DNA of 64,000 bases from Candidatus Liptonbacteria bacterium. Its GTDB lineage: Bacteria; Patescibacteriota; Minisyncoccia; UBA6257; 2-01-FULL-56-20. Position numbers and translations under genes: made by a program. How positions within the stretch are numbered: the stretch's first letter is position 1; each line of letters starts with the position of its first letter. The DNA lies in assembly GCA_016182105.1 (NCBI GenBank), contig JACOXZ010000011.1, forward strand, positions 1,218 through 65,217, given 5' to 3'. This document shows, one piece after another, positions 5,925-63,741 of this stretch. The notes below the pieces were generated by a model, which saw only the letters and a list, made by a program, of their open reading frames with translations, was not told the DNA's origin and did not search any database.

Positions 5925-6025
5925 TCCCGTTAGAAGCCGCGATCGCGTTGCTAAAACTCCAAATATCTATCAATGTACAGTCATTACAATGAACTCGCCT
6001 AGATCGCGATCTGCTTCTAACGGGA
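5925..6025. repeat. family-1 miniature TIR element, copy E1 (about 101 bp; TIR tcccgttagaagccgcgatcgcg / cgcgatctgcttctaacggga)
   Basis: 22-nt terminal inverted repeats read directly. The internal sequence is homologous to E2, E3 and E4. The element ends at the ATG of the downstream gene. Confidence 0.8.
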
Positions 6026-7497
6026 TGAAGAACAAAAAAGGACAACTTTCGCTTCAGGTTTTGATCTTCGGAGCGGTCTCGATAATCGTTATCAGCGGCT
6101 TTGCGCTTTGGGCTTCATCGTTTTTGAAATTCTCTCTTAGGGATTTCAATAAGACATTAGCTTTCTCAATTTCGGAGGCTGGCATTGAGTATTACCGCTG
6201 GCACCTGGCGCACGCGCCACAGGACTTTCAGGACGGCACTGGCGGCCCCGGCCCTTATGTCCACAACTATTACGACAAAAACGGAATTGTCCTCGGCCAG
6301 TTCAGTTTGGAAATCACCCCGCCAGCCACGGGCTCAACGATCGTAAAAATCAAGAGCACTGGCCAGCTTGCGGCCGACTCGAGTATTCAGAAAATAATTC
6401 AGGTTTCGATGGGCATCCCGTCTTTTGCCAAATACGCGGTCGCGGCCAATGACATCATTCGTTTTGGAGACGGCACAATAGTTTACGGACCGATTCATTC
6501 AAACGGCGGCATCCGGTTCGACGGCTACGCTTATAATTTGATAACCAGCGCCGTAGCCGACTATGACGACCCGGATCACGGCGGCGGCAATGAATTCGGA
6601 GTCCATACTCATCGCAATGAAGGAGGCCAAAGCGGAGTGGATAACAGCTACCGACCCAAAGAAGCGCCGCCGCCGCCAGCTCCCGACCGGCCGGATGTTT
6701 TCGGCGCTGGCCGTGAGTTTCCGGTGCCGGCCGTTGATTTCGTTGGCATTACCCAAGATTTGAGCCAAATCAAAGCCGATGCTCAAACAAACGGTTTTTA
6801 TAGGGCGAGCTCAACGGCTTACGGCTATGAAGTGATTCTTAAAACCGATGACACATTTGACCTTTACCGGGTCAATTCTTTAGTGTCTTCGCCTTCTTCA
6901 AATTGCACTAAATCGCAAGATCAAGCCAATAATCAAGGCGGCTGGGGAACCTGGACTATTAATTCCAAAACCTTATTGGGTAATTATGTTTTTCCGGCCA
7001 ATGGTTTGATATTTTTGGAAGACGATGTTTGGGTGAGAGGACAGGTGGACGGCGGCCGTTTGACCATCGCTTCAGCTCGGTTTCCGGATAATCCCTCAAC
7101 AAGAAGCAGCATTACTTTAAACGACAATCTTTTATATACCGATTACAACGGTCTTGATGCCATCGCTTTAATGGCGCAGAAAAATATCAATGTCGGCTGG
7201 CAGAGCCAAGATATCATCAGAATTGATGGGGCTTTGGTCGCCCAAAACGGCTGGGTGGGAAGATATTATTACAATAGTTTCTGTTCGCCGTACGATTTAA
7301 GAGACACCATTACCACTTACGGGTCGCTCGTCTCAAGCCAGCGCTACGGTTTTGCTTACACTACCGGTGTTCAAACTGTTTCCGGCTATCCGACGAGAAA
7401 CCTAATTTACGATTCCAATTTATTATACGGCCCGCCGCCGAGTTTCCCCTTGACCAGCGATCAGTATACACAAATATCCTGGGACGAAGTAAAATAG
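6025..7497 (+). CDS. pilus-associated protein with pilin-like hydrophobic N-terminus (PilX or minor-pilin-like)
   Basis: Starting at ATG 6025 the protein reads MKNKKGQLSLQVLIFGAVSIIVISGF. The ORF-track start at 5989 lies inside the repeat. Confidence 0.5.
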   Translation: MKNKKGQLSLQVLIFGAVSIIVISGFALWASSFLKFSLRDFNKTLAFSISEAGIEYYRWHLAHAPQDFQDGTGGPGPYVHNYYDKNGIVLGQFSLEITPPATGSTIVKIKSTGQLAADSSIQKIIQVSMGIPSFAKYAVAANDIIRFGDGTIVYGPIHSNGGIRFDGYAYNLITSAVADYDDPDHGGGNEFGVHTHRNEGGQSGVDNSYRPKEAPPPPAPDRPDVFGAGREFPVPAVDFVGITQDLSQIKADAQTNGFYRASSTAYGYEVILKTDDTFDLYRVNSLVSSPSSNCTKSQDQANNQGGWGTWTINSKTLLGNYVFPANGLIFLEDDVWVRGQVDGGRLTIASARFPDNPSTRSSITLNDNLLYTDYNGLDAIALMAQKNINVGWQSQDIIRIDGALVAQNGWVGRYYYNSFCSPYDLRDTITTYGSLVSSQRYGFAYTTGVQTVSGYPTRNLIYDSNLLYGPPPSFPLTSDQYTQISWDEVK

Positions 7498-10462: not shown

Positions 10463-10514
10463 ATATTTGCTATATTTAAGCAGATTTCGCATAATTTTAA
10501 ATATCTTTTATGAA

Positions 10515-10629
10515 TCCCGTTAGAAGCCGCGATCGCGTTGCAAATAAATTAAATATCAACCAAATGCGTAATCGTTACAATAAAATAAACCTGCAGACTT
10601 GCGCAAATCGCGATCTGCTTCTAACGGGA
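10515..10629. repeat. family-1 miniature TIR element, copy E2
   Basis: Same 22-nt TIRs as E1. The element ends at ATG 10629. Confidence 0.8.
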
Positions 10630-15605: not shown

Positions 15606-16886
15606 TTGCTAGACTTTGGTTTTCTTGGTATTCTCTGGTTAATGCTTCAATCTAGACTTTTTACTAAGGTCGCCCGTAACTTCCCAAAAGATGAAGAGGC
15701 GATAAACGCCAAGCTTCTTACGCGGGCGGGGTTTGTGGAGAAAGTTTCGGCGGGTGTATATTCGTTTTTGCCGCTCGGACTTCGCGTGATGCGTAAGATT
15801 GAAACAATTATTCGCGAGGAGATGAACGCGCTAGGTGGAATGGAGATCTTGATGCCCGCGTTGCATCCTAAAGAAAACTGGGAGACGACTGGCCGCTGGA
15901 AGACTTTTGACGTGCTCTATAAAATCAAATCGCGGGAAGGCAAAGAATTTGCCTTGGGTCCGACACACGAAGAAATCGTGGTGCCGCTAGTGGCGAAATT
16001 CGTGAATTCCTACAAAGATTTACCTGTTTATCTTTACCAAATACAGGACAAATTCCGAGATGAACTGCGCGCGAAATCAGGCCTTCTCCGAGGTCGGGAA
16101 TTCTTGATGAAGGACTTATACAGTTTTCATACCTCCGAAGGCGATTTAGACTCTTTTTATGAAAAAATGAAAAAAGTTTATACGAAATTATTTTCCCGAG
16201 CCGGACTAAAAACTAGAATAGTGAAGTCATCCGGCGGCACTTTTTCCAAATATTCTCATGAATTCCAGGTATTGACCCCAGTCGGCGAGGATGCGGTTTT
16301 CTACTGCGAAAAGTGCGATTTTGCCGAAAACAAAGAGATTGCAGAGGTAAAAGAAGGGGACAAATGCCCAAATTGTGCGGGGAAAATAAGGGTAAGCCAG
16401 GGAATTGAGGTCGGCAATATCTTCAAATTAGGCACCAAGTTTTCCAAGGATTTTGAGCTTCTCTATAAAGACGAGAAAGGCAAGGAGAATCATATCTCAA
16501 TCGGCTGTTACGGCATAGGCCTTAGCCGGCTTATGGGCGCCATAGTAGAGATTTTTCATGATGAGCAGGGCATAATTTGGCCGGAGACAGTCGCCCCTTT
16601 TGCTGCGCATCTTATAGAGCTTGGGGAAGGCAAATCCAAAAAGCTCTACCACGATTTACAAAAAGCCGGAATAGATGTACTTTATGACGACAGGAATATA
16701 TCACATGGCGAGAAACTGACAGAAGCGGATCTGATTGGCATACCCCTACGTCTGGTTCAGAGCGAAAAAACCGGCGCGAAGATTGAGGTCAAGCGCCGCG
16801 ACGAGAAAGATTCAAAACTGATGACAGTGTCACAAGTTATAAAATTACTACAACCTACAACCTACAACCTACAAACTATAACCTAA
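15606..16886 (+). CDS. proS: proline--tRNA ligase (short archaeal/eukaryal-type class II)
   Basis: Class II aaRS motifs and a C-terminal zinc CxxC...CxxC. The C-terminus is encoded by an acctacaa word repeat. Confidence 0.75.
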   Translation: MLDFGFLGILWLMLQSRLFTKVARNFPKDEEAINAKLLTRAGFVEKVSAGVYSFLPLGLRVMRKIETIIREEMNALGGMEILMPALHPKENWETTGRWKTFDVLYKIKSREGKEFALGPTHEEIVVPLVAKFVNSYKDLPVYLYQIQDKFRDELRAKSGLLRGREFLMKDLYSFHTSEGDLDSFYEKMKKVYTKLFSRAGLKTRIVKSSGGTFSKYSHEFQVLTPVGEDAVFYCEKCDFAENKEIAEVKEGDKCPNCAGKIRVSQGIEVGNIFKLGTKFSKDFELLYKDEKGKENHISIGCYGIGLSRLMGAIVEIFHDEQGIIWPETVAPFAAHLIELGEGKSKKLYHDLQKAGIDVLYDDRNISHGEKLTEADLIGIPLRLVQSEKTGAKIEVKRRDEKDSKLMTVSQVIKLLQPTTYNLQTIT

Positions 16887-19054: not shown

Positions 19055-20933
19055 AGCCAAAAATTTTACCGATTTCGAGGAGTCGTTAAATGGCGGCTCA
19101 CGCGAGGAAGTCATAGAGGTGCCCTTGAGCAGCCAGCCGCTTTTTTATACGGGCTTATTAATTTTTCTTTTTGCCGCGCTTGCCGTAGGCCGCGTTCTTT
19201 TCTTGGGTGTAGTCTCCGGCGAAATCTATAAAGCCAGGGCCGAGGCCAATTCTAGCGAGCTCGAGCGGCTTCAAGCGCCGAGGGGTCTCGTCTTCGCGAG
19301 AGGCGGAGAAGTTTTGGCAGAAAACCAGCCGGTTTTCCTGGCCGTCTTGAAGACCAGCGAATTTCTAAAAGACGAGTCTATCCAAGAAAAAACGCTTGCT
19401 TCAATCAAGGAGATTATGGGAATTGATAGAGAACTAGTCTGGAGTCTGATCAAAGAACGAGACCAAGAAAGAATAGGCGACCCAATTGTTCTTAGCGCCG
19501 ACCTAAGCCAAACTGAGCTAATTCAGCTTAAAAGCCTCAATTCCTTGTCCCTGGTCGTAGAGAGCGGTTTCAAGAGGAATTATCCGGACGGCCCAATTTT
19601 TTCTTCCATAATTGGCTATACCGGACTCCCTACCGCCCTAGATCTTAGAGAGAATGCCGAACTTACCGGCGTGGATTTTGTTGGCAAATCCGGCCTAGAG
19701 GCTTTTTACGATAAAGATCTCCGCGGAAAAAACGGATTTTTAGCGTATCTCCGCGATGCCAAAGGTGAAATCTTCGAAGAAAAAAAGGAGAGGCCAGTCG
19801 AGGCAGGAGCGGCTCTCAATTTAACAATTGACGCTGAATTTCAGCGCTATTTTTACCACAGGATGCAAGAGGGACTCACCTCATTAGGGAGAAACTCCGG
19901 CGTTGGTCTGGCGTTAAATCCGAGAAACGGCGAGGTTTTGGCCCTGATTAATTTACCGAGCTACGACCCCAATATTTTCTTGGCTCCAGAGAAAAACGAA
20001 GAGAGGTTGAAACTCTTGAATTCACCGGAGACGCCCCTGTTCAATCGGGCTATAAGCGGCACCTACAGCCCAGGTTCCACAATTAAGCCGCTCGTGGCTC
20101 TCGCGGCTTTGAGCGAAGGCGTGATCAACACCGAAAAACAAATTTATTCCCCAGGCTATCTTGAAATTCCGAATCCTTATGACCCCCAGAAACCCACTCT
20201 TTTCCTCGATTGGCGGCCCCAGGGCTGGGTGAATTTAGAGCGGGCCATTGCTCAGTCCTCGAACGTTTATTTCTACACTGTAGGCGGTGGCTTCGGCGAT
20301 ATTAAGGGGCTGGGGATCAAACGTTTAAACGACTGGTGGCAAAAATTTAATTTAGGAAAGCTCACTGGCATTGATTTACCTTGGGAGGCCAAGGGACTTT
20401 TGCCCACAGTCGAGGAAAAAGAAAAAAGAACCGGCACGCCCTGGCTTTTGGGCGATACTTATAACGTCTCAATTGGCCAGGGAGATCTCTTGCTTACTCC
20501 TCTTCAGATTTTAAACTACGTTGCCGCAATTGGAAACGGCGGGAAAATCTACCGGCCGTTTCTTGTCTCGAATTTCAAACACTCCGAAGTTGCTAGCGAC
20601 CTTTCTAATCTTCAAACTCAAATTTCTGAAGTGGAGAAAGGCATGAAGGCCGCAGTGAATTTTCCCTTAGGCACCGCCTACCTCCTTCACGATCTTCAGG
20701 TCTCGGTCGCTGCAAAAACCGGAACAGCCCAGATTTTGTCGAACACCCAGGCCAACGCCTTCTTTGTCGGTTTTATGCCGGCCGAGGATCCTGAAATTGT
20801 TATCCTGATTTTAGTTGAACGTTCGCGCGAAGGCAGTTTAAACACCGTGCCTATCGCTAAAGACGTGCTTAACTGGTACTACTTAAACCGGATCCCTCAC
20901 CCTTCAGAGATTTTATCTACGTCATCAAAATGA
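19002..20933 (+). CDS. mrdA: penicillin-binding protein 2 (transpeptidase)
   Basis: STIKP (SxxK), SSN and KTGTA motifs. The last 11 codons and the stop codon lie inside family-2 repeat F2-1. Confidence 0.8.
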   Translation: MLSQLFLSLKPSMPRKYKAKNFTDFEESLNGGSREEVIEVPLSSQPLFYTGLLIFLFAALAVGRVLFLGVVSGEIYKARAEANSSELERLQAPRGLVFARGGEVLAENQPVFLAVLKTSEFLKDESIQEKTLASIKEIMGIDRELVWSLIKERDQERIGDPIVLSADLSQTELIQLKSLNSLSLVVESGFKRNYPDGPIFSSIIGYTGLPTALDLRENAELTGVDFVGKSGLEAFYDKDLRGKNGFLAYLRDAKGEIFEEKKERPVEAGAALNLTIDAEFQRYFYHRMQEGLTSLGRNSGVGLALNPRNGEVLALINLPSYDPNIFLAPEKNEERLKLLNSPETPLFNRAISGTYSPGSTIKPLVALAALSEGVINTEKQIYSPGYLEIPNPYDPQKPTLFLDWRPQGWVNLERAIAQSSNVYFYTVGGGFGDIKGLGIKRLNDWWQKFNLGKLTGIDLPWEAKGLLPTVEEKEKRTGTPWLLGDTYNVSIGQGDLLLTPLQILNYVAAIGNGGKIYRPFLVSNFKHSEVASDLSNLQTQISEVEKGMKAAVNFPLGTAYLLHDLQVSVAAKTGTAQILSNTQANAFFVGFMPAEDPEIVILILVERSREGSLNTVPIAKDVLNWYYLNRIPHPSEILSTSSK

Positions 20934-21023
20934 GTACTACAGACAAGACGTTTCCTTTCAAAGTCGCTCGGCAAAAGAGATCACACCATGAAAAATCGTG
21001 CATGATCTCTGAATGGTGAGGGA
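20893..21023. repeat. family-2 miniature TIR element, copy F2-1 (about 131 bp; TIR ccctcacccttcagagat / atctctgaa.ggtgaggg)
   Basis: Homologous to the copies at 34724 and 62973. It ends at an ATG. Confidence 0.8.
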
Positions 21024-21364
21024 TGATTCAAAAATTTATTCGATTTAAAATCACAAGCGCTGCTTTCTTCGCGAGTTTGACACTGGTTTTAAGTGGATGG
21101 CTTTGGGCCTATTTTTCGTTAAGAAATCTCCCGCCACCCTATATTCTTAGGTTTGTGAGCAATCTTGGTGTGACCCAATTAGGCGATCTTCAAGACATTG
21201 CCGCCGCCGGAGCCGTGGCCATGATAAGCGTGCTTTTGAATTTTATACTGGCTTTTGAGCTTGAGACCAAAGCAAAGTTTTTAGCGAAACTCCTGACTTT
21301 TTCAACCCTGACTTTTGCCGCCTTGATTTTCATCGGCTTCGCCGCTATTATTAGCGTCAACTAG
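21023..21364 (+). CDS. hypothetical small membrane protein
   Basis: 113 aa with three hydrophobic segments. The start is supplied by the end of F2-1. Confidence 0.35.
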   Translation: MIQKFIRFKITSAAFFASLTLVLSGWLWAYFSLRNLPPPYILRFVSNLGVTQLGDLQDIAAAGAVAMISVLLNFILAFELETKAKFLAKLLTFSTLTFAALIFIGFAAIISVN

Positions 21365-21445
21365 TGGATAGTGTGCTAGTGACTAGTGACTAGCGCACTA
21401 GCCACCAACGTACTAGTCACTAATGCACTAGTCACTAACTCTCAT

Positions 21446-34723: not shown

Positions 34724-34855
34724 CCCCCCCACTCTTCAGAGATTTTCTCTACGTCATCAAAATGAGTACTATAGACAAAATGTTTCATTTCAAGGCCGTT
34801 CGGCAGATGAGATTATGCTACGAAAAATCGTGCATGATCTCTGAAGAGTGAGGGA
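34724..34855. repeat. family-2 miniature TIR element, copy F2-2
   Basis: It begins immediately after the TGA of the upstream response regulator and ends at the ATG of the next one. Confidence 0.8.
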
Positions 34856-35262
34856 TGAGGCCGAAACCTTTAATTTTATTAGTTGACGATGAGGCTGATT
34901 TTCGAGAGATTATCAGCGCGAAGCTCACCGCAGCGGGTTTTGACGTTGCTCTAGCTAAAAATCAGTCCGAAGCCGTCGCTAAAGCCGAGCAACTCTTGCC
35001 TGACCTGATTTTAATGGATATCTATTTGCCGCCCGGGCCAACCGGGACTGATACGGCCTTGAACATCAGGCAAAATCCCAAAACCAAAGATTTAAAAATC
35101 GCATTCCTCACCAATCTTAAAGAACCCTGGCCTGCAATCGGCGGGGATAGAGAAAAAGTTACCCAAGAGCTTGGCATGGAAGGGTTTATAGAAAAGACAG
35201 AAGATTTGAATATGCTCGTCAAAAAAATCCAGGAAATTTTAGAGAAGGCTCCCTCGTCTTGA
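34855..35262 (+). CDS. single-domain response regulator (paralogue of 34331-34723)
   Basis: MRPKPLILLVDDEADF receiver domain. Confidence 0.7.
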   Translation: MRPKPLILLVDDEADFREIISAKLTAAGFDVALAKNQSEAVAKAEQLLPDLILMDIYLPPGPTGTDTALNIRQNPKTKDLKIAFLTNLKEPWPAIGGDREKVTQELGMEGFIEKTEDLNMLVKKIQEILEKAPSS

Positions 35263-38568: not shown

Positions 38569-39744
38569 ATGAATGGCGTAAAGGCTAAAAAAGTGGTTTT
38601 CGTGGGACTAAGCGGAGGGGTGGATAGCTCGGTCGCAGCCCTGATTTTATCTGGCTACGCCAGATCTCGCGAAGCGAGAAAAGAAAAAGGATACGAAGTA
38701 ATCGGGGTTTTTATGCGCTGTTTCAATTTAGACGGGTGTGCCGAGCGAGATGCCGAGGACGCCAGACGGGTGGCTGGTCACCTTGGGATTCCTTTTTACG
38801 TCTGGGATTTTGAGGAGGAGTATAAGCAACGGGTGGTGGACTACATGGTTCAGGGATACGCCCAAGGGATTACCCCGAATCCGGACGTGATGTGCAATAA
38901 GGAAATCAAGTTTGGGCTCTTTTTAGAGAAGGCGCTTAAGATGGGAGGGACTCACGTGGCCACGGGGCACTATGTTCGGCTGACTGTTTCTCGGGACCGG
39001 CTGTTGACTCGCTCCAGCGGCGAGTCCCAGCCTGCGAGAGCTCCTTCGAAGCAATCAGCCTCACCAGTTTATTCGCTTTCTGTTGCTAAAGATAAAAATA
39101 AGGACCAGTCCTATTTCCTTTGGACTTTGACCCAAAAACAGTTGAAGCATTGCCTTTTTCCGATAGGAAGTTATTTAAAGTCCGAGGTGCGTGAAATTGC
39201 ACGTAAGGCCGGGCTCCCGACGGCTGATAAAAAAGATTCGCAGGGGATTTGTTTTTTAGGGAAAGTGACGCTCGGGGATTTTCTGCGAGAGTATATTCCC
39301 GAGGAGAGGGGGCCGGTTTTAAGCGTGACTGGCGAGCGGCTCGGCGAGCACCAGGGCTCTCATTTTTATACGATCGGCCAGCGCCGCGGGATTGGGATTG
39401 GCGGCGGCACGCCCTACTACGTGGCGGAAAAGGATGTGGCGACAAATACGCTCGTTGTTGCCCCGAGTGAAACTCACGAGTCGCTCTATCGAAAGGAAAT
39501 CGAGCTTACTGATGTAAATTTCATCCGGTCGGATTTACCATCTCTAATTCGCGCGAATAAGGGAATTGAGGTTTTAGCTAGAGTTCGCTACCGCCAGCCG
39601 CTTGCTCTCGCGAAACTCTATAACCTATCACCTAACACCTATCACCTCGAATTTGGCCGGCCTGTCAAATTCGTCACCCCCGGCCAGTCAGCCGTGTTCT
39701 ATCTAAAGGACGGTGAGATGTTTGGCGGGGGGATAATCACATGA
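38569..39744 (+). CDS. mnmA: tRNA 2-thiouridine(34) synthase MnmA (with a GC-rich in-frame insertion)
   Basis: PP-loop SGGVDSS and the KDQSYFL motif. Confidence 0.8.
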   Translation: MNGVKAKKVVFVGLSGGVDSSVAALILSGYARSREARKEKGYEVIGVFMRCFNLDGCAERDAEDARRVAGHLGIPFYVWDFEEEYKQRVVDYMVQGYAQGITPNPDVMCNKEIKFGLFLEKALKMGGTHVATGHYVRLTVSRDRLLTRSSGESQPARAPSKQSASPVYSLSVAKDKNKDQSYFLWTLTQKQLKHCLFPIGSYLKSEVREIARKAGLPTADKKDSQGICFLGKVTLGDFLREYIPEERGPVLSVTGERLGEHQGSHFYTIGQRRGIGIGGGTPYYVAEKDVATNTLVVAPSETHESLYRKEIELTDVNFIRSDLPSLIRANKGIEVLARVRYRQPLALAKLYNLSPNTYHLEFGRPVKFVTPGQSAVFYLKDGEMFGGGIIT

Positions 39745-40328: not shown

Positions 40329-40370
40329 AACCAACCCTGCCGCCAAAAACTGAGCAAAATTTCTACTATG

Positions 40371-40403
40371 ATTATACCGCAATTGCGGTATAATCGTAGT
40401 AAG
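40371..40403. promoter_or_regulatory. perfect 24-bp palindrome ATTATACCGCAATTGCGGTATAAT plus CGTAGTAAG (copy 1, upstream of rpsB)
   Basis: Read directly. A near-identical copy is at 62923-62955. Confidence 0.5.
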
Positions 40404-41264: not shown

Positions 41265-41703
41265 GTTAGGCGATATCCAGAGGCTGCGGGAGGCAACCGG
41301 AGCTGGAGTCATGGAGTGCAAAAAAGCCATAGAAGATGCGGAAGGTGATTTTGACCGAGCAGTAAGTTTGATTCACAAAAGGGGGCTTCTTAAGGTTCAA
41401 AAGCGCAAGGCACGGGAAACCGGAGCCGGACTTATTGAATCCTACGTTCATAATGATAGGATTGGCGTTCTCTTGGATTTGCGGGCTGAGACTGATTTTG
41501 TTGTCCGTTCCGAGCCTTTTCGCCGGCTCTCCCACGAGCTTGCCATGCAGATTGCGGCTCTCGCGCCTCAAAATCTTGAGGAATTATTGAAACAGCCGTA
41601 TATTAAAGATGAATCTAGGACTGTCGAGGATTTAATAAAAGAAGTGATTGCCCTGGTTGGCGAAAACATCCGAGTTAATAAGTTCTATCGTTTAGAACTC
41701 TAA
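41257..41703 (+). CDS. tsf: elongation factor Ts (short form)
   Basis: LREATGAGVMECKKAL-type N-terminus. It overlaps the rpsB stop. Confidence 0.7.
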   Translation: MDKLGDIQRLREATGAGVMECKKAIEDAEGDFDRAVSLIHKRGLLKVQKRKARETGAGLIESYVHNDRIGVLLDLRAETDFVVRSEPFRRLSHELAMQIAALAPQNLEELLKQPYIKDESRTVEDLIKEVIALVGENIRVNKFYRLEL

Positions 41704-41735
41704 AACCTAAAACCTATCACCTAAAACCTAGTAAC

Positions 41736-42065: not shown

Positions 42066-42153
42066 GCGCAGGTAGTCCCGTAGGGGGCGGGAGTGGTCTG
42101 TAAAACCATTGCCCATCTGGGCCCCGTGAGTTCGACTCTCACCCTGCGCACCA
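42066..42153 (+). tRNA. tRNA-Tyr (anticodon GUA), class II with a long variable arm, CCA encoded
   Basis: Acceptor gcgcagg/cctgcgc, anticodon loop CUGUAAA, variable arm gccca-tc-tgggc, T arm gtgag-ttcgact-ctcac, then ACCA. Confidence 0.65.
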
Positions 42154-53211: not shown

Positions 53212-53225
53212 GCAACTGAGCGTTG

Positions 53226-53341
53226 TCCCGTTAGAAGCCGCGATCGCTTTGGGTAATGCATAGTTGTTTGCCGTATGGATAGTCATTGTTATACATCGCT
53301 ATAGTCCACATATCACTGATCGCGATCTGTTTCTAACGGGA
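53226..53341. repeat. family-1 miniature TIR element, copy E3
   Basis: Same TIRs as E1 and E2. Flanked by cgttg on both sides. Confidence 0.8.
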
Positions 53342-53383: not shown

Positions 53384-53761
53384 ATGCCTAACGTGAGGCC
53401 CACGAAGAAAATCTTGATTGTTGAGGATGAAAAGCCAGCGGCTAAGGCCTTTGGGCTTAAACTAGGCCGCGCTGGCTTTGAATCCGAAGTTGCTTTTGAC
53501 GGCGTAGACGCGCTCGCGATATTAGCCAAAAAAAACTTCGACCTTATCCTTCTTGACCTTGTGATGCCGCGGATGGATGGCTTTGAGTTCTTGGCTGAGC
53601 TAAAAAACAGGAATATAAAAACACCGGTCATCGTGACAAGTAGTTTGAGTCAGGAAGAAGACGCCAAAAGAGCCAAAGATTTGGGCGCTATAGATTATTT
53701 TGTGAAATCCGATACGCCGATTGCGGATATCGTCGAGCACGTGAAAAAAGTTTTGAACTAA
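53384..53761 (+). CDS. single-domain response regulator
   Basis: KKILIVEDE...DLVMPRMDG. Confidence 0.7.
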   Translation: MPNVRPTKKILIVEDEKPAAKAFGLKLGRAGFESEVAFDGVDALAILAKKNFDLILLDLVMPRMDGFEFLAELKNRNIKTPVIVTSSLSQEEDAKRAKDLGAIDYFVKSDTPIADIVEHVKKVLN

Positions 53762-55446
53762 TGATTGACACCGGAAAAATAGAATCCATCCTTTTGCGGG
53801 AAAATTATGTCACCTCCGATGAGATCAAAAAGGCCGAGGAGTTTGGGAAATCCCGCAATACATCGCCGATTGAGTATCTATTAACCGAGGGACTCATAAC
53901 CAAAGATCTTTTGGGTCAGGCCATTGCCGAATCTTTTGGGGTGCCTTACGCCGATTTGAATTCCAACGCGCCGTCTAAGGAGCAAGTTTTAAAAATCCCC
54001 GAGGAGACTGCCAAAAAATTTCACATCGTCCTTTTCAAAGAAAGCGAGCTCGAAGTCGTAGTTGCAACCGATGATCCAGAGCAGGAAGGGCTAAAAGAGG
54101 CGCTCGATAACATTTTCAATCCCTTTAATGTTTTTGAAAAAGTCAAAAGGACAACGGTTGCTTATTCTCTGCCCGAGGACATTGAGTCGGTTTTTATTTA
54201 TTACCGGAAGCCCCTAGAGACAAGATTCACTAAAATCATCGAAGCCAAGAAACGGGTCGCGCCCGAGATCATTGAAGAAATTTTGGAAGACGCCATTGCC
54301 TTCCGTGCTTCTGACGTCCATTTCGAACCGCAGGAAAAGGAAGTGCTTATCCGCTTCAGGATTGACGGTGTTCTTCACGAGGCCGGCCGGATTCCAAAAG
54401 AACACTATGAAAACATTTTAAACAGGATAAAGGTCCAGTCACATCTTCGGATTGACGAGCACCTCTCCGCTCAAGACGGCGCGATGAGATACGAGAGGTC
54501 TGGAGGAGCTGTTGACTTACGTGTCTCCGTAGTGCCAACTCTTGACGGCGAAAAAGTCGCGATCCGTATACTTGCTCAGTACATTCAGAGTTTTTCCCTT
54601 GGCGATTTGGGGTTCTCACACTCGGATCAGGAAGGTATTTTGGAGGCGGGAAAATTGCCTTTTGGAATGATTTTAGTCACCGGCCCAACTGGGTCGGGAA
54701 AAACCACCACTCTTTACGCCCTGATTAAGATTCTGAACCGTCCAGAGGTAAATATCACAACCATTGAAGACCCAGTGGAATATAAGATAGTTGGGGTAAA
54801 CCAAATCAGAGTGAACCCTGCGACTAATCTCACTTTTGCCGAAGGTCTTCGTTCGATTGTGAGGCAGGACCCCAATATCATCTTGGTTGGAGAGGTCCGC
54901 GACCGCGAAACCGCTGAAATTTCCGTAAATGCCGCCTTAACCGGTCACCTTCTCCTTTCCACTTTCCACGCCAATGACGCCGCAACCGCTATCCCTCGGC
55001 TCTTAGACATGGGCGTTGAGCCATTTCTTCTCGCTTCAACGCTTGAGGTCGTGATCGCCCAACGGCTCACTCGCCGAATTTGCGTAGCCTGCCGTAAGAG
55101 CGTCTCAATGAGTTCCGAGGAGCTCTTGCATCTCCATCCCGCCATAAGTCGATATTTCCCCGGGAAGAGTTTTAACCTTTACAAAGGCAAGGGCTGTAAT
55201 ACTTGCGGCAAGACAGGTTATAAAGGGAGAATAGCCATTTTTGAGATCATCCGGATTACGCCGGAGATGGAAGACTTGATTTTGAAAAACCCGCCGACCT
55301 CCGAGATTTGGAAGCTGGCGAGGCGTCAGGGGTCTCGCTCGCTTTTTGAGGACGGTTTAGAGAAAGTTAAAGCCGGCATCACTACTTTAGAAGAACTTTT
55401 CCGAGTGGCTAATCCGCCAGAGATGACTTTAGGCGGCCTGGAGTAA
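53761..55446 (+). CDS. pilB: type IV pilus assembly ATPase PilB/GspE (long form with N-terminal domain)
   Basis: GPTGSGKTTT plus a C-terminal Cys cluster. Paralogue of 1216-2466. Confidence 0.85.
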   Translation: MIDTGKIESILLRENYVTSDEIKKAEEFGKSRNTSPIEYLLTEGLITKDLLGQAIAESFGVPYADLNSNAPSKEQVLKIPEETAKKFHIVLFKESELEVVVATDDPEQEGLKEALDNIFNPFNVFEKVKRTTVAYSLPEDIESVFIYYRKPLETRFTKIIEAKKRVAPEIIEEILEDAIAFRASDVHFEPQEKEVLIRFRIDGVLHEAGRIPKEHYENILNRIKVQSHLRIDEHLSAQDGAMRYERSGGAVDLRVSVVPTLDGEKVAIRILAQYIQSFSLGDLGFSHSDQEGILEAGKLPFGMILVTGPTGSGKTTTLYALIKILNRPEVNITTIEDPVEYKIVGVNQIRVNPATNLTFAEGLRSIVRQDPNIILVGEVRDRETAEISVNAALTGHLLLSTFHANDAATAIPRLLDMGVEPFLLASTLEVVIAQRLTRRICVACRKSVSMSSEELLHLHPAISRYFPGKSFNLYKGKGCNTCGKTGYKGRIAIFEIIRITPEMEDLILKNPPTSEIWKLARRQGSRSLFEDGLEKVKAGITTLEELFRVANPPEMTLGGLE

Positions 55447-55449
55447 GCG

Positions 55450-56520
55450 ATGATCCCTTTTTTACGCAACTTCGGCCTTGGCCAAGAAAAAGATTATTTA
55501 ATCGAAAATTTATCTCTACTTCTCGCTTCCGGGATTACTATCACCTCGGCGCTTGAGGCCATTAAAGTTGAGGTTAGATCTCAAAGGATCAAGGGGATAG
55601 TGACTGCGCTTGAGGAAGACGTAGAGAGCGGCGTGCCGCTCTGGAAGGCGCTTCAAGGGAGCCGGCTTTTCGCGCCGCATGTGGTCTCACTCGTGAAGAT
55701 CGGCGAGGAGGCTGGCCGTCTTCCCGAAAATCTAAAGGTCATTGCCGAGGAAGAGCAGAAGGATAGGGTATTTCGCTCGAAAATACGTTCGGCCATGATG
55801 TATCCGGTTTTCGTCTTTACCCTGACTGTAATAATCGGCGTCGGCATTGCCTGGTTTATCCTGCCGCGTTTGGCCTCGGTCTTCAGCGAGCTTGATATCA
55901 AACTGCCCCTTGTGACGAGGGCCTTGATCGCTCTCGGCAAATTTTTAGGAGAGTATGGCGCTATCGTGATCCCTCTTATTCTTCTTGCGGCTGTTGCCCT
56001 AATTTACTTTCTTTTTATTTTCCGGCGCACCAAGTTTATCGGCCAATTTATTCTTTTTAAGATCCCGGGCGTCGGGAAACTAATTAAAGAAGTGGAACTA
56101 GCGAGAATGGGTTATATTTTAGGGACGCTCCTCAAGGCCGGGCTTACTGCTCCAGAATCTTTAGGGTCGCTATCCGAGGCCTCAACTTCTTTTACCTACC
56201 GCAACCTATACGCTTTTTTGAAGGACCATGTTGAGGCAGGGGATTCATTCCAAAAGAGCTTTCGTTTTTTTCCAAAGATAAATTCATTTATCCCAACGCC
56301 GATTGAGGAACTTATCGTTACAGGCGAGAAATCCGGCCGTCTCTCGGAGAGTTTTCTTAAAATCGCCGAAATATTTGAGAGTAAAACCGATATTACGACA
56401 AAGAATCTCACGGTTATTTTGGAGCCGATTCTTCTTGTAATTGTCTGGTTGGGGGTTGTGGCTGTGGCCTTAGCTGTCATTTTGCCGATTTACAGTTTGA
56501 TCGGAGGGTTTAATAAGTGA
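55450..56520 (+). CDS. pilC: type IV pilus platform protein PilC/GspF (second copy)
   Basis: Paralogue of 2479-3558. Confidence 0.8.
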   Translation: MIPFLRNFGLGQEKDYLIENLSLLLASGITITSALEAIKVEVRSQRIKGIVTALEEDVESGVPLWKALQGSRLFAPHVVSLVKIGEEAGRLPENLKVIAEEEQKDRVFRSKIRSAMMYPVFVFTLTVIIGVGIAWFILPRLASVFSELDIKLPLVTRALIALGKFLGEYGAIVIPLILLAAVALIYFLFIFRRTKFIGQFILFKIPGVGKLIKEVELARMGYILGTLLKAGLTAPESLGSLSEASTSFTYRNLYAFLKDHVEAGDSFQKSFRFFPKINSFIPTPIEELIVTGEKSGRLSESFLKIAEIFESKTDITTKNLTVILEPILLVIVWLGVVAVALAVILPIYSLIGGFNK

Positions 56521-56521
56521 G

Positions 56522-56950
56522 ATGCGCGGCTTTATGTTACTAGAGGTCCTGCTTTCAGTAGTTTTGATTGCGGTCTTGGCCGTGATCACTATCCCTATTT
56601 ATCAGTCGTTTCAGGTAAAAAACGATCTCGAGCTTGCGGTAAATACCGTGTCGCAGACTTTGCGGCGGGCCCAAATTTTTGCGGAGTCAGTCGCGAGCGA
56701 TACCGCTTGGGGCGTTTTTGTGGGTTCAAGTAGCATCACCCTTTTTCGGGGCCCAAGTTTTTCAAGCCGGGTTACCTCTTCAGATGAAGTTTTTGATTTG
56801 CCATCCACCATTTCTCCGGGAGGGCTTCGGGAGTTTATTTTTTTGAAATTCTCCGGTGAACCGCAAGCTACTGGAACACTAACCCTAACTTCTTCAGCTA
56901 ATGAGACAAAGTCCGTTAGCGTTAATAGTAAGGGAGTCGTTACTTATTAG
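56522..56950 (+). CDS. pseudopilin
   Basis: MRGFMLLEVLLSVVLIAVL. Confidence 0.55.
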   Translation: MRGFMLLEVLLSVVLIAVLAVITIPIYQSFQVKNDLELAVNTVSQTLRRAQIFAESVASDTAWGVFVGSSSITLFRGPSFSSRVTSSDEVFDLPSTISPGGLREFIFLKFSGEPQATGTLTLTSSANETKSVSVNSKGVVTY

Positions 56951-56952
56951 CG

Positions 56953-58497
56953 ATGAAACTACCGACTACTCACTACTCACTACTCACTCGTCGTGGCTTC
57001 AGTCCGGTTGAGGTGATTTTAGCGGGTTCTATCCTGGCTTTGATCGTGACAGCCATTGTGGGCGCCTTGGTTTACGGAAGAGAGGGGACTCAAGTTTCCG
57101 GGAGTAGGGCGAGGGCGATCTTTTTGGCCGATGAGGGGCTTGAGGCTCTTCGCAATATGCGCGATGAAAGCTTTACTAATCTAACCGACGGTCCGCATGG
57201 TCTTGTAACCTCTGGTAGTCAGTGGGTCTTTTCGGGAGTAGAGGACGTGACCGATATTTTTACGAGGCAAATTCAAATCGGGACGATTGATTCAACGACC
57301 AAACAAATCACTTCAACTGTAACCTGGCAGCAGAATCCCCAGCGCCAGGGATCTGTATCTTTGGGGACACGATTGACAAACTGGAAGATTATAGCCGGTT
57401 TTCAGGCTGATAGTCTTTCTGTGAATACTTCAGCTGCCGATGTGGATTCTACAGACAATACGCATGTCATCGGCGTCACTATCGATAACCTTGGTGTCAC
57501 CGATATCACCATCACCCACATGACAGTTTCTTGGAGCGGTGTCTCCGGCGCGACAAGGCTGAACGGCATCACGATCAACGGCACCCAGGTTTTCTCCGGT
57601 AATTCTAACTCAGGCACACTTCTTGATATTGCTGATTTTACTTTGACTGCGGGGGCGGGGAGTTATCCCATCAATTTTTTTGATTTCAATAGGAATATGA
57701 CCAATAGTACCTTGACAGTTGTCTTTACCATGGCTGATGGTTCAACCAAGGAAGTGACCTTTAGTCCGGGTGCCGTGCCGCCGGACACCACCCCGCCGGC
57801 AGCGATTACCAATCTCGCCGTCTCGAATGTGACCTCCAATTCCACCGACCTTTCTTGGACCGCTCCGGGAGACGATGATAACACCGGCACCGCTACCTCC
57901 TACGACGTTCGCTATTCTACCGCTCCGATTACTGATGCCACCTGGTCATCAGCCACCCAGGTGACCGGAGAACCCGCCCCCGCTCCCGCAGGGACAGCTC
58001 AATCCATGACCGTCACAAGCCTATCGCCGTCTACGACTTATTACTTTGCTATTCGAACCGCCGATGAAGTACCAAATATCTCAAGTCTCTCGAATATACC
58101 GAGCGTCACAACGTTAACACCTGCTCAAGCCGATAGTCTTTTGGTGGATACTTCGGCTGTCAATATTAATCCAAGTGATAATACCCAGGTGATCGGTATA
58201 ACCCTTGAGAATACTGGAACCTCGAATATCACCATTACCCAAATGACAGTTTCCTGGAGCGGTGTATCAGGCGGGACAAGATTGAACGGCATCACGATCG
58301 GCGGCACCCAGGTTTTCTCTGGTAATTCTAACTCCGGTACGCTTCTTGATATTACCGATTTCACTTTGACTGCGGGTGCTGGAATTTATCAACTCAATAA
58401 TCTCGACTTCAACCGGAGAATCACCGGAATAACTTTAAGTATTACCTTCACTATGGCTGACGGGTCCACCAAGACGGTAAGCGGCATCACCCCGTAA
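56953..58497 (+). CDS. large pilin-like protein with two tandem duplicated domains flanking an FN3-like module
   Basis: N-terminus RRGFSPVEVILAG. Two nearly identical ~125-aa repeats (57402-57780 and 58125-58497). Confidence 0.55.
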   Translation: MKLPTTHYSLLTRRGFSPVEVILAGSILALIVTAIVGALVYGREGTQVSGSRARAIFLADEGLEALRNMRDESFTNLTDGPHGLVTSGSQWVFSGVEDVTDIFTRQIQIGTIDSTTKQITSTVTWQQNPQRQGSVSLGTRLTNWKIIAGFQADSLSVNTSAADVDSTDNTHVIGVTIDNLGVTDITITHMTVSWSGVSGATRLNGITINGTQVFSGNSNSGTLLDIADFTLTAGAGSYPINFFDFNRNMTNSTLTVVFTMADGSTKEVTFSPGAVPPDTTPPAAITNLAVSNVTSNSTDLSWTAPGDDDNTGTATSYDVRYSTAPITDATWSSATQVTGEPAPAPAGTAQSMTVTSLSPSTTYYFAIRTADEVPNISSLSNIPSVTTLTPAQADSLLVDTSAVNINPSDNTQVIGITLENTGTSNITITQMTVSWSGVSGGTRLNGITIGGTQVFSGNSNSGTLLDITDFTLTAGAGIYQLNNLDFNRRITGITLSITFTMADGSTKTVSGITP

Positions 58498-58502
58498 CAT
58501 TT

Positions 58503-59018
58503 ATGCGTAGAAAGGATACTAGAAACAGGAGAGGTTTTACTCTGGTCGAGCTTATTCTTTATGTAAGCGTGTCCGCATTAGTGGCGCTTGCGGCAGCCGG
58601 GCTCATAGTTATCATTATTCAAGCTCGCGTTAAAAGCCAAACCGTTGCCGAAGTTGAGCAGGTTGGGAGCCATGTGCTGAATCTTATCACCCAAACCGCG
58701 AGAAACTCTCTTCGAATTAATTCACCCCTTCCCGGCGGCTCGAGCAGTGTTTTGTCCCTGGCTAATCAATCCAGTACCAAAAACCCTACTATTTTTGATG
58801 TTCAAAGCAGCACGATTCGAATTACAGAGGGCGCCTATCAGCCAGTGCCGCTTACCTCTTCCCGGCTTTTAGCTTCAAGTCTTTTGTTTCAAAATCTATC
58901 CCGAACCAACACCTCCGGCACCATAAGAATTCAATTTACTTTAACTCACCAAAATCCCGGCAGTCGAAACGAATATGATTACGTAAAAAATTTTTATGGT
59001 TCAGCAACAGTTAGATAG
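58503..59018 (+). CDS. pseudopilin
   Basis: RRGFTLVELILYVSVSALVA. Confidence 0.5.
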   Translation: MRRKDTRNRRGFTLVELILYVSVSALVALAAAGLIVIIIQARVKSQTVAEVEQVGSHVLNLITQTARNSLRINSPLPGGSSSVLSLANQSSTKNPTIFDVQSSTIRITEGAYQPVPLTSSRLLASSLLFQNLSRTNTSGTIRIQFTLTHQNPGSRNEYDYVKNFYGSATVR

Positions 59019-59087
59019 CTTTTAGCTGATAGCTTTTAGAAGTAAAATAACTAAAAGCTAAAAGCTGTAACCTAAAAGCTAGTAATT

Positions 59088-59456
59088 ATGTATATCGAAT
59101 CATTTAAACAATTGACAGTTTGGCAAAAATCGATCCAATTAGTGAAAGAAATTTATAGGGTGACAGACAAATTTCCTGCCTCGGAGATGTACGGCTTAGT
59201 AAGTCAGATGAGAAGAGCGGCAATATCAATTCCTTCAAATATTGCCGAGGGCAAAAAAAGGAAAACGAAGAAAGATTTTCTGCAATTTCTAAGAATAGCC
59301 GATGGTTCCGCCGCTGAGCTAGAGACCCAAATTATTATTGCAAAAGAATTATTTCCAAAATTAGACTTTTCTAAGACAGTATCATTACTAGAGGAGATCC
59401 AAAAAATGTTAATAACCATAATCAAAAAGTTTGAAGGAAATGGTCATGCTGACTAG
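59088..59456 (+). CDS. four-helix-bundle protein of the 23S-rRNA-IVS / DGR Avd-like family
   Basis: 122 aa. WQKSIQLVKEIYRVT...AISIPSNIAEG is typical of this family. Flanked by aaaagct repeats. Confidence 0.6.
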   Translation: MYIESFKQLTVWQKSIQLVKEIYRVTDKFPASEMYGLVSQMRRAAISIPSNIAEGKKRKTKKDFLQFLRIADGSAAELETQIIIAKELFPKLDFSKTVSLLEEIQKMLITIIKKFEGNGHAD

Positions 59457-59502
59457 CGGCCTAAAAGCTAAAAGCTATAAGCTAAAAGCTAAGGGTGGTT
59501 AC

Positions 59503-59874
59503 ATCACGCTTTTAATGGTTATTATTGTGGGCGCGATAGGCGTCGCAACCGGCGTCTCTCTTCTTCTTTTAGGCGTCGGTTCATCTCGAAGCAGCTTATC
59601 GTTTGAGAAGTCGAATCAAGCCAAGGCCTTGTCGAATGCCTGCGCGGAGGCAGCACTTGATCAAATAAGAAATTCATCTGCCTTCTCCGGAAGCGCTGGA
59701 TTAACTTTCGGCCGTGGCAGCTGCAGCTATCAGGTTTTAAACTTAGGCGGCCAGAGTCGTTTAATTAACGCTTCAGGCACGGTGGATGAGGTCGTAAGAA
59801 AAATCAAAATAACCCTAAATCAAATCACGCCTAAGATTAACCTTACTTCCTGGCAAGAAGTTTCTGATTTTTAA
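59503..59874 (+). CDS. pseudopilin-like protein
   Basis: GGYITLLMVIIVGAIGVATG. The upstream part of ORF 59431 is encoded by the word repeat. Confidence 0.4.
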   Translation: MTLLMVIIVGAIGVATGVSLLLLGVGSSRSSLSFEKSNQAKALSNACAEAALDQIRNSSAFSGSAGLTFGRGSCSYQVLNLGGQSRLINASGTVDEVVRKIKITLNQITPKINLTSWQEVSDF

Positions 59875-59949
59875 TCCACAGAGAAAAATCAGTGAGTTAT
59901 GATATAATTTTTATAAGCCAGACCCCCACACTAATCAGGACTTTGAGTT

Positions 59950-60087
59950 ATGTTCTATGTGTATGTGTTGCGTAGCATGAAAGACAAGAAATTATATAAT
60001 ATAGGTTATACGAATAATCTTAACCGCAGGTTGATAGAACATATTAGTGTGGGGGAAAGGTCGCGAGAATTTCAGATTCTAAAATGA
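59950..60087 (+). pseudogene. truncated GIY-YIG nuclease remnant (45 aa)
   Basis: MFYVYVLRS...KLYNIGYTNNLNRRLIEH is the N-terminal half only. Confidence 0.5.
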
Positions 60088-60557
60088 TAAGTAATTTTTC
60101 TTCGAGACGCGGTTTTACGCTTTTGGAAATCCTGCTTGTAGTGGCTGCCCTGGGAATCCTGGCTGGCATTGTCATTTTGGCGATCAATCCCGGAAAACAG
60201 CTTGGCGACACAAGAAATGCTGCGAGGAAGGTTGACGTGAACACCATTATTAACGGCGTTTATCAGTATTCTCTTGACAATAACGGCAACCTGCCGTCCG
60301 GGCTTTCGACTTCAACTTGTTCGACAGCCACCAATAATATCTGTAAGACTTCAGTTGCAACCTCGAGCTGCACAGGCTTTGTTGACCTTTCGGTTTTGAC
60401 TCAAAACGAGAAATATCTTGTTTCTATTCCTATTGATCCCTCGATTTCGAGTGCCTCAACCGGCACTGGTTATTTCGTAAGAAAGACGGTGAACGGCCGA
60501 GTGGAGGTTTGCGCGCCAAACGCTGAACAAGGAGCCACTGTGAGCGTAATCCGTTGA
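60084..60557 (+). CDS. type IV pilin
   Basis: RRGFTLLEILLVVAALGILAGIVILAINP. Confidence 0.7.
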   Translation: MISNFSSRRGFTLLEILLVVAALGILAGIVILAINPGKQLGDTRNAARKVDVNTIINGVYQYSLDNNGNLPSGLSTSTCSTATNNICKTSVATSSCTGFVDLSVLTQNEKYLVSIPIDPSISSASTGTGYFVRKTVNGRVEVCAPNAEQGATVSVIR

Positions 60558-60563
60558 GAGGAG

Positions 60564-60680
60564 TCCCGTTAGAAGCAGATCGCGATCTGGGTAAGTCTGC
60601 AGTTCAATTTTATTCACTGTAATGACTATACACTGATAGATGTTGGATTTTTAGCAACGCGATCGCGGCTTCTAACGGGA
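60564..60680. repeat. family-1 miniature TIR element, copy E4 (inverted relative to E1, E2 and E3)
   Basis: The reverse complement of the internal sequence aligns with E1 and E2. It ends at the ATG of the histidine kinase. Confidence 0.8.
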
Positions 60681-62907: not shown

Positions 62908-62922
62908 AAAGAGTTACTATTA

Positions 62923-62955
62923 TTATACCACAATTGCGGTATAATCGTAGTAAGG
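62923..62955. promoter_or_regulatory. palindromic motif copy 2 (attataccAcaattgcggtataatcgtagtaag)
   Basis: 32 of 33 positions match 40371-40403. Confidence 0.5.
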
Positions 62956-62972: not shown

Positions 62973-63103
62973 ATCCCCCACCTTTCGGAGATTTCTCCCC
63001 GTCATCAAAACGAAGTTTGGACACAAAGCATTTGTTTTCAAGGTCGCCTTAGACTTGAGACCGTGCTTCAGAAAGAAGCGTATGATCTCTGAAAGGTGAG
63101 GGA
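62973..63103. repeat. family-2 miniature TIR element, copy F2-3
   Basis: It ends at the ATG of sodA. Confidence 0.75.
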
Positions 63104-63741
63104 TGAAATTTGAATTACCAGCGCTCCCGTATCCATACGACGCACTAGAGCCATTTATTGACGCTCGGACCATGGAGATTCACCACACCAAGCATCACGC
63201 GACATACGTGGCGAAGCTGAACGAGGCCCTGGAAAAACACCCCGCCGTCGCTCACGCTTCGGCGGGCAAGCCCGAGTTCGAAATACTGGAAGGACTTTTG
63301 AAGAATCTCGAGGCGGTTCCAGAAGATATAAGAACCGCAGTCAGGAACCACGGCGGAGGGCACTGGAACCATTCTTTTTTTTGGTTGGTAATGGCTCCAA
63401 ATGCCGGAGGCGAACCGAGCAGCGTCTTAGCTGAAGCAATAAATAATGCTTTCGGCAGTTTTGAAAAATTCAAAGAAAAATTCACTAGCGCTGGTCTTAA
63501 TAGGTTTGGCTCCGGCTGGGCCTGGCTCGTGGCGAGTAACGGCAAGTTAGAAGTTTACAGCACGCCGAATCAAGACAACCCTTTAATGGAAGGAAAAGTT
63601 CCGGTTTTGGGTATCGATGTGTGGGAACATGCGTACTATGTTAAATTTTTATGGAATAGGGCAGAGTATATTAAGACCTGGTGGAACGTCGTTAATTGGC
63701 GACGAATTGAAGAAAATTACAATAAAATTGTGAAAAAATAG
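63103..63741 (+). CDS. sodA: Fe/Mn superoxide dismutase
   Basis: [18 protein letters not shown]. Confidence 0.9.

Follow-up and report, generated by a model that had tools for sequence, protein, structure and literature searches.

A four-helix-bundle gene between inverted heptamer arrays in the pilin operon of a Candidatus Liptonbacteria bacterium

Results and Discussion

The cassette and its protein

We analyzed a 64,000-nt stretch of DNA (hereafter the window) from contig JACOXZ010000011.1 of a Candidatus Liptonbacteria genome (GCA_016182105.1). Between two pilin genes of the window lies a cassette that combines a gene for a small four-helix-bundle (4HB) protein with inverted arrays of a 7-nt repeat on either side of it. 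The 4HB gene (59088..59456, + strand) encodes a protein of 122 aa. The upstream neighbor is a gene for a minor pilin of 171 aa (58503..59018, + strand; Pfam N_methyl, E=1.7e-6), and the downstream neighbor encodes a minor pilin of 144 aa from the PilX-like family (59440..59874, + strand). An initial annotation, made from the letters of the window, had placed such a gene between pilin genes at 59025-59495. The setting is as described there, and the cassette does lie at these positions, but comparison with the closest relative without the insertion (locus L049, see below) gives a slightly wider extent of approximately 0.49 kb (59009..59496, + strand).

The 4HB protein scores above the curated cutoffs of three models for the family found in intervening sequences (IVSs) of 23S rRNA genes, in agreement with the family originally proposed. 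These are Pfam 23S_rRNA_IVP (PF05635; E=4e-38, 130.2 bits, cutoff 33.8), NCBIfam TIGR02436 'four helix bundle protein' (129.3 bits, cutoff 24) and NF008911 (141.1 bits, cutoff 137). The conserved SIPSNIAEGKKRKT motif of the family is present, and approximately 8000 relatives were found at E<=1e-10. The protein also matches PDB entries 2gsc (Xcc0516; E=1.8e-23) and 2rld, each of which was deposited as five chains. A kinship with Avd, the accessory protein of diversity-generating retroelements (DGRs), had been suggested as well. Homology was detected with Pfam bAvd (PF22296; E=3.4e-7, 31.1 bits) and with the Avd equivalog of NCBIfam, DivGenRetAVD (NF033474; E=1.3e-5, 25.5 bits), but both scores fall under the cutoffs of these models (40 and 80, respectively), and the relationship to Avd is only a distant one. 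Exact-sequence look-ups found neither the 4HB protein of the window nor its NCBI near-twin (P0002) on record, and a defence-system search with PADLOC gave no match. To our knowledge, the function of the 'IVS protein' has gone unexplained since rRNA intervening sequences were first described.

Heptamer arms and predicted stems

The left arm (L; 59016..59039, + strand; TAGCTTTTAGCTGATAGCTTTTAG) comprises 3.5 heptamers, TAGCTTT, TAGCTGA, TAGCTTT and TAG. The right arm (R2; 59461..59491, + strand; containing CTAAAAGCTATAAGCTAAAAGCTA) begins 5 nt past the stop codon of the 4HB gene, the 3' end of which overlaps the start of the downstream pilin gene, and reads CTAAAAG, CTAAAAG, CTATAAG, CTAAAAG and CTA. 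The unit pattern is TAGCTNN on the left and NNAGCTA on the right. L is complementary to R2 at 23/24 positions (96%), with a predicted duplex energy of -32.2 kcal/mol, and in the centroid fold of 59000-59510 these two arms form a stem that encloses the entire open reading frame (ORF). The flanks are thus mutually complementary, as the initial annotation stated.

A second right-type array, which the initial annotation did not spell out, lies between L and the 4HB start codon and ends 6 nt ahead of the ATG. This inner array (R1; 59051..59081, + strand) consists of 4.4 copies of CTAAAAG (CTAAAAG, CTAAAAG, CTGTAAC, CTAAAAG and CTA) and forms direct repeats with R2 that are 94% identical. L is complementary to R1 at 21/24 positions (88%; duplex -26.7 kcal/mol), so the inner copy would provide a local hairpin in competition with the long stem. 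The loop of this hairpin (AAGTAAAATAA; 59040..59050, + strand) is 11 nt long and resembles the 3' part of loops in ORF-less elements of a related locus, L010, described below.

Repeats of this type are concentrated in the cassette. The motif CTAAAAGCTAAAAGCT (allowing up to 2 mismatches) occurs 7 times versus 0.08 expected, with 6/7 occurrences in the cassette, and all six occurrences of CTAAAAGCT in the 64 kb fall within it. The pattern TAGN4TAGN4TAGN4TAG has 10 matches in the window versus 0 expected. We did not identify a promoter or terminator of the cassette's own in excess over shuffled sequences. No Rfam family, and no rRNA, was detected in the window at gathering scores, and an Rfam E-value search of 58900-59600 returned only chance miRNA-like matches to the L:R1 hairpin.

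Filled and empty sites

Comparison of related loci indicates that the cassette is an insertion into the 23-nt overlap of two minor-pilin genes, because close relatives are without the 488-nt segment. By blastn, collinearity with the closest relative (L049) extends to 59008 of the window and resumes at 59497; the intervening 488 nt correspond to 14 nt in L049 (TATCCGCTAAAAAG), as seen both by blastn and in an alignment (A1) with loci L042-L044. In the empty loci L042-L045 and L049 the two pilin genes overlap by 23 nt and the 4HB gene is absent, and the more distant relative L046 (59% identity) is likewise empty. Only L001, with a 4HB protein that is 98% identical, has the insertion in common with the window. 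In sequence, the empty target (GCTAAAAAG) is similar to a single arm unit.

The host genes were adapted to the insertion, as the reading frames on either side show. The upstream pilin gene ends at TAG 59016-59018, which is the first TAG of L, and its orthologues in empty loci L043-L045 end with ...GSATIR-TAA. The downstream pilin's former start (ATGGTTCAGCAAC, encoding MVQQ...; 58996..59025, + strand) is orphaned; the old frame from 58996 now hits the second TAG of L (59023-59025). Empty-site relatives begin their PilX-like gene at this old start (MVQQLSAKKGYITLL), and homologues 80-94% identical to the downstream pilin start with MVQQ[LP]SAKKGYITLL... versus MVMLTSGLKAKSYKLKAKGGYITLL in the window. 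Since TAG recurs every 7 nt in L, this arm places a stop in all three frames.

The replacement ATG of the downstream pilin, at 59440, falls within the 4HB gene's 3' end, and the two genes overlap by 17 nt. From there the frame passes through R2 (...GLKAKSYKLKAKGGYITLL), as had been noticed initially, so that the arm is translated as LKAKSYKLKA and encodes the Lys-rich N-terminus of the pilin. Only one frame of R2 lacks TAA, and the gene uses it; this frame is open because the third unit is CTATAAG and not CTAAAAG. The NCBI gene call P0121, from a Candidatus Liptonbacteria metagenome-assembled genome (MAG), is 100% identical to this downstream pilin (59440-59874). The locus is a clean example of an insertion put to use by host genes: they take from it stop codons, a new start and, as the N-terminal leader of a pilin, a translated repeat.

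The gene and its arms in other genomes

We scanned for homologues in one genome per species and obtained 37 loci, 35 of which have an intact 4HB gene and were scored for arms. Complementary period-7 arms beyond all 200 shuffles were found at 21/35 loci, which extends to the homologues the original description of a gene in the loop of an IVS-like stem. A further 7/35 have recognizable, weaker period-7 arms on both sides, and 4/35 have a one-sided array only. The mean complementarity of a locus's own arms is 14.5, versus 9.8 for arms paired across loci, and 0/5000 permutations reach the observed value.

The sequence of the arm unit varies between lineages. It is AGCTNNN in genomes of the Candidate Phyla Radiation (CPR), AGTNNNN in a Bacteroidota MAG (L036, with 24/24 positions paired), AGTTCTT in a Sphingobacteriales MAG (L040), GATAGNN in L032, CAGTTGT in another locus and AGTCAGG/CCTGACT on plasmid pNPUN02 of Nostoc punctiforme. 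The common denominator is YAG every 7 nt upstream and CTR downstream. These comparisons indicate that the unit sequence is lineage-specific, yet the two arms of a locus stay complementary, and they point to the gene-in-stem-loop design as a conserved property of the gene family and not a local accident. We screened the 37 loci with eight conserved rRNA probes and found no convincing match, apart from two short partial matches to the 16S probe (L025 and L031). By this screen, the gene with its inverted heptamers is found repeatedly outside rRNA, at unrelated sites in many phyla. Two MAGs have two cassette copies each (L022/L023 and L025/L026). No relatives were found on the viral contigs searched.

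Substitution patterns indicate that the 4HB ORF is under strong purifying selection. The dN/dS ratio is 0.06 between the window and L001. It is 0.05 between L012 and L013, two loci in which the cassette occupies an identical position downstream of a response-regulator gene; here dS is about 2, so that synonymous sites are nearly saturated. In other pairs of 4HB genes synonymous sites are saturated and non-synonymous differences amount to only 12-18%. Given this combination, we infer that the copies are old and that ORF and arms persist together.

One homologue, in a Candidatus Kuenenbacteria MAG (L020, 4001-4357), is frameshifted after approximately 25 codons despite 83% identity by tblastn, and is either a pseudogene or the product of an assembly error. 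The arms of this copy are among the best paired (30/32 positions).

Genes next to the cassettes are mostly co-oriented with them, both upstream (31/35 loci) and downstream (29/36 loci), and the arms abut the stop and start codons of these neighbors across loci. Together with the lack of promoter and terminator signals, this is consistent with transcription of the cassette by read-through from the host operon. At its last unit, the left arm of typical cassettes runs into an AGGA-like Shine-Dalgarno sequence 5-10 nt before the ATG of the 4HB gene.

Further cassette-bearing loci in pilin operons are L007 and L010. The latter is syntenic with the window and has an intact cassette (L, R1, ORF and R2) ahead of a large pilin-like gene, whose leader (MSKSYKLKA/GFSIVE) comes from the right arm. 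Two ORF-less pairs of inverted heptamers are present in L010 as well (3320-3515 and 6074-6200), and their loops, of approximately 50 nt, are homologous. These pairs supply the ATG and the leaders of two further pilins (MNNQQxKIxKIL..KSYQLKA../GFTL), with the right arms read as ...KSYQLKA... within the prepilin leaders, and they look like miniature, gene-less cassettes. Absorption of such arrays into coding sequence appears to be tolerated in cleavable, Lys-rich prepilin leaders.

Comparison with known elements

ORF-containing IVSs of 23S rRNA are known from Coxiella burnetii, Leptospira and Brucella, where the ORF is that of S23p. They are defined by their site in an rRNA gene (helix 25 or 45 of 23S rRNA), and are excised by RNase III without religation. 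The cassette in the window resembles them in that a PF05635 protein is encoded within terminal inverted repeats able to pair over more than 20 bp, and the complementary flanks form a predicted stem that encloses the ORF, as at the borders of an IVS. The resemblance to the IVS of Coxiella burnetii is closer still. That IVS is 428 nt long and has a 28-bp terminal stem, and its S23p ATG is directly preceded by three tandem heptamers (GACAGAT) and a degenerate fourth; the cut by RNase III falls where the first of these repeats begins (PMC4990558). Both elements therefore have a stem of tandem heptamers just ahead of the ATG and an overall size of approximately 430-490 nt, and this common design of heptamer stem and ORF makes the IVS analogy of the initial annotation well founded. 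ORFs of the 23S_rRNA_IVP family also occur in insertions in the 16S and 23S rRNA genes of CPR bacteria (PMC11270868).

Unlike the 23S IVSs, the cassette has as its host RNA the mRNA of a pilin operon and not helix 45 of 23S rRNA. It also has the additional array R1, and one of its arms contributes translated sequence to a host protein. Unlike in the Coxiella element, the ORF is under strong purifying selection, and cleavage by RNase III is known only for the rRNA-borne relatives. Because residence in rRNA, one of the features that define an IVS, is lacking, we treat the element as an IVS-type cassette in mRNA and not as an IVS.

The arms also have the features of heptamer repeats that have been described, unexplained, from intergenic regions of Beggiatoaceae, Cyanobacteria, Bacteroidetes, Xanthomonas and Nostoc (PMC4679880; PMC4692102). 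As in the short tandemly repeated repetitive (STRR) sequences, the TAACTGA repeats and the GGGAATC repeats of Xanthomonas, tandem 7-nt units are found in 3-8 copies at gene boundaries; like the arrays of the STRR and TAACTGA type, those studied here have at least three tandem units in forward orientation just before start codons. The intergenic repeats likewise often end a few nt before a start codon and sometimes occur as convergent pairs (PMC4679880; PMC4692102). The difference is that the inverted pair in the window encloses a conserved protein gene, whereas most intergenic arrays have none. S23p or four-helix-bundle genes are not mentioned in the two papers on heptamer repeats (PMC4679880; PMC4692102), and, the Coxiella IVS apart, the literature searched gave us no link between heptamer arrays and PF05635 or S23p. 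The protein family and the rRNA IVSs are already known. We did not find in the searched literature the conserved unit of gene and inverted heptamers outside rRNA, its filled and empty sites, or its tie to heptamer repeats, and these three make old questions testable. The locus and its relatives tie the IVS protein to intergenic heptamer repeats (STRR, TAACTGA), which have been a separate puzzle in several phyla, and they provide a natural pair of filled and empty sites.

Interpretation

We favor, with a probability of roughly 0.6, the explanation that this is an IVS-type cassette in a protein-coding operon, transcribed with its host genes, probably processed or insulated via its stem, and carrying a functional 4HB protein directed at nucleic acid. 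Without a promoter or terminator of its own, the cassette would be transcribed as part of the pilin operon. On the transcript, L would pair either with R2, in a 24-bp stem around the ORF, or with R1 in the local hairpin. By analogy with the rRNA-borne versions these stems may be substrates of RNase III, a double-strand-specific RNase, and the insert would then be processed out of the host RNA or insulated within it. The 4HB protein is probably a pentamer similar to Avd and Xcc0516, as far as its matches indicate. Nucleic acid is its probable target, the heptamer arrays themselves being one possibility, and the protein would be what maintains the unit.

Several observations weigh against an IVS-type cassette that is processed from mRNA. 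Pairing and cleavage at the RNA level are postulated for this cassette, and the competing L:R1 hairpin would form first during transcription. Mismatches between arms are G·U-compatible in 19 cases versus 21 of the A·C type (95 are of other types), which is no enrichment for G·U, so selection on an RNA stem is indistinguishable here from symmetry at the DNA level. A signature motif of RNase III was not found in the 64-kb window, although the gene could lie elsewhere in the genome. The Coxiella S23p ORF, unlike that of the window, is decaying and probably untranslated (PMC4990558). A clear target-site duplication is not visible at the L049 junctions, where the flanks are only 83-90% identical and the boundaries are not nucleotide-exact, and there is one cassette only in the window. 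Finally, among 80 metagenomic loci with TAGCT-type arrays, only 1 adjoins a 4HB gene, while 67 do not and 12 are at contig edges. We had considered that such arrays are mostly cassette arms, and rejected this because of the 1/80 count. These comparisons suggest an asymmetric association, in which the gene is nearly always between arrays but the arrays are mostly without the gene. Arrays may thus be a broader phenomenon that the cassette merely exploits.

Some of the same facts could be read as those of a mobile element at the DNA level. The arrays would then act as terminal inverted repeats or as sites of recombination, either for a recombinase supplied in trans or for homologous exchange between arrays, with the 4HB gene as cargo or cofactor and with RNA structure irrelevant. 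Presence and absence among close relatives (with one copy in the 64-kb window), recurrence of the unit at unrelated loci, the resemblance of the empty target GCTAAAAAG to an arm unit and the lack of a G·U bias in the arms would all be accounted for; the direct repeats R1 and R2 would be expected from integration at a pre-existing array, and the two ORF-less pairs of L010 with their homologous loops are what miniature derivatives would look like. Miniature transposable elements with inverted repeats (MITEs) similarly combine inverted ends, insertion polymorphism and ORF-less derivatives. We nevertheless consider this explanation improbable. The cassette has no transposase or recombinase, and we know of no cognate transposase; no clear target-site duplication was seen. 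The ends are tandem arrays that vary in unit number and sequence between copies, unlike the near-identical copies of active MITE families, and the saturation of synonymous sites, with orthologous insertions retained over a dS of about 2, argues for long residence instead of recent spread. The negative search of viral contigs points the same way. Still less probable, in our view, is that the arrays are primarily regulatory leaders, with right-type arrays, as members of a widespread class of heptamer direct repeats found shortly before start codons, tuning translation of the downstream gene, the left arm sequestering the array, and the 4HB protein binding the repeats to modulate the effect. In the window (at 16848 and 41700) and in metagenomes, start codons do follow solo forward arrays at a distance of 0-20 nt; an ORF starts near 47/98 arrays, and many metagenomic arrays end 0-20 nt ahead of the start codon. 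The TAACTGA repeats of Beggiatoaceae are placed likewise and have been proposed to act in translation (PMC4679880). The Shine-Dalgarno sequence that follows the last left-arm unit in typical cassettes, and the 4HB stop codon 5 nt before R2 and within the overlap with the pilin start, would also suit such a role. A leader, however, leaves the insertion polymorphism and the occurrence inside rRNA unexplained, and R2 in the window is coding sequence.

That the 4HB protein is an orphan Avd, either a DGR remnant or a protein that serves a reverse transcriptase (RT) encoded elsewhere, is very improbable. The distant homology to the two Avd models is in favor of this, as is the fact that PF05635 matches are common beside the RTs of DGRs (PMC10053308). 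Like Avd (bAvd, PDB 4DWL), the protein belongs to the family of four-helix-bundle folds, is small and basic, and has pentameric relatives. However, the IVS-family models score far above their cutoffs whereas the Avd models fall under theirs, and the conserved genomic partner of the gene is a pair of heptamer arms and not an RT. An RT motif was not found in the ORFs of the window or of the related loci searched, although a motif search is a weak test. The sole long direct repeat that could have been a pair of template and variable repeats (57402/58125) is a duplication of a coding domain with mismatches that are not A-biased. With neither an RT motif nor an A-biased repeat pair in the window, the initial view that a complete DGR is not supported stands.

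We regard as doubtful a wider generalization of the IVS-type cassette. In this proposal PF05635 genes with inverted heptamer arrays would constitute a widespread, undescribed class of self-insulating elements, of which the 23S IVSs are the special case that was noticed first. A pentameric 4HB protein would recognize the arrays, in either RNA or DNA form. Its substrates, or else ORF-less derivatives, would be the abundant heptamer repeats known from CPR bacteria, Cyanobacteria (STRR), Bacteroidota, Beggiatoaceae and Xanthomonas. Insertions would have been exapted again and again to provide pilins with start codons and leader peptides.

The surrounding operon and other repeats

The + strand of the window (G+C content of 47.6%) encodes a type IV pilus operon, identified from the ORF list and profile matches. 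A PilB-like gene (53761-55446) and a PilC-like gene (55450-56520) precede a run of pilin-type genes (56522-56950, 56953-58497, 58503-59018, 59440-59874 and 60084-60557), all on the + strand. The best protein matches of the window are to MAGs of Candidatus Liptonbacteria and Patescibacteria. The pilin-like gene of 514 aa has an internal duplication of 300 nt (57402-57701 and 58125-58424, 77% identical) that gives rise to two domain copies of approximately 100 aa, one on each side of an fn3 domain.

Heptamer arrays were also identified in the window at 16848, 21360-21439, 39618, 41700 and 56959. The array at 16848-16885 (CTACAAC, 5.4 copies) overlaps the final codons of ORF 15606-16886 and stops 3 nt short of the ATG of an MreB-like gene (16889). 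That at 41700-41730 (CTAAAAC, 4.4 copies) runs from the stop codon of an EF-Ts-like gene and ends 5 nt before an ATG at 41736. Both are in forward orientation and of the right-arm type, with neither a partner arm nor a 4HB gene. The array at 39618-39647 (CTATCAC, 4.3 copies) lies inside ORF 38569-39744, where it is read in frame as ...LYNLSPNTYHL..., and may have been absorbed into the coding region. At 56959-56988, 3.4 copies of ACTACTC encode the leader of the 514-aa pilin (MKLPTTHYSLLTRRG/FSPVE). L010 and L007 have an intact 4HB cassette of the AGCT type at the equivalent junction; a footprint of that cassette in the window is not supported, since the unit there (CTACTCA) differs from the AGCT type. 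The block at 21360-21439 consists of heptamers in mixed orientation (TAGTGAC and GTCACTA) with periods of 7 and 15, and sits between ORF 21023-21364 and the ATG of an L21-like gene (21447). A simple two-arm hairpin was ruled out for this block, as its fold (-32 kcal/mol) is more complex.

The pilin operon contains a second small insertion of 137 nt (59919-60055) that is absent from L049 and L001. It includes a truncated GIY-YIG ORF of 45 aa (PF01541, E=2.6e-6), and is bounded by a perfect 13-nt inverted repeat (CCCCCACACTAAT/ATTAGTGTGGGGG; 59923-35 and 60043-55) with an inner inverted repeat of 10 nt. For a tRNA-Tyr(GTA) of 88 nt called by ARAGORN at 42066-42153, the Rfam tRNA model was silent at the gathering score. 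A 133-nt repeat occurs three times (20894-21026, 34726-34858 and 62974-63106; 62-86% identical), and a 40-nt palindromic repeat with TATAAT (TACTATGATTATACCGCAATTGCGGTATAATCGTAGTAAG) occurs twice (40364-40403 and 62915-62954; 95% identical). A repeat of approximately 40-50 nt with the palindrome GCGATCGC (TCCCGTTAGAAGCCGCGATCGCG...) is present in four copies (5916-5973, 10506-10563, 53217-53274 and 60555-60594), the last of them directly after the stop codon of the major pilin gene, and could be a terminator or an element similar to repetitive extragenic palindromic (REP) sequences.

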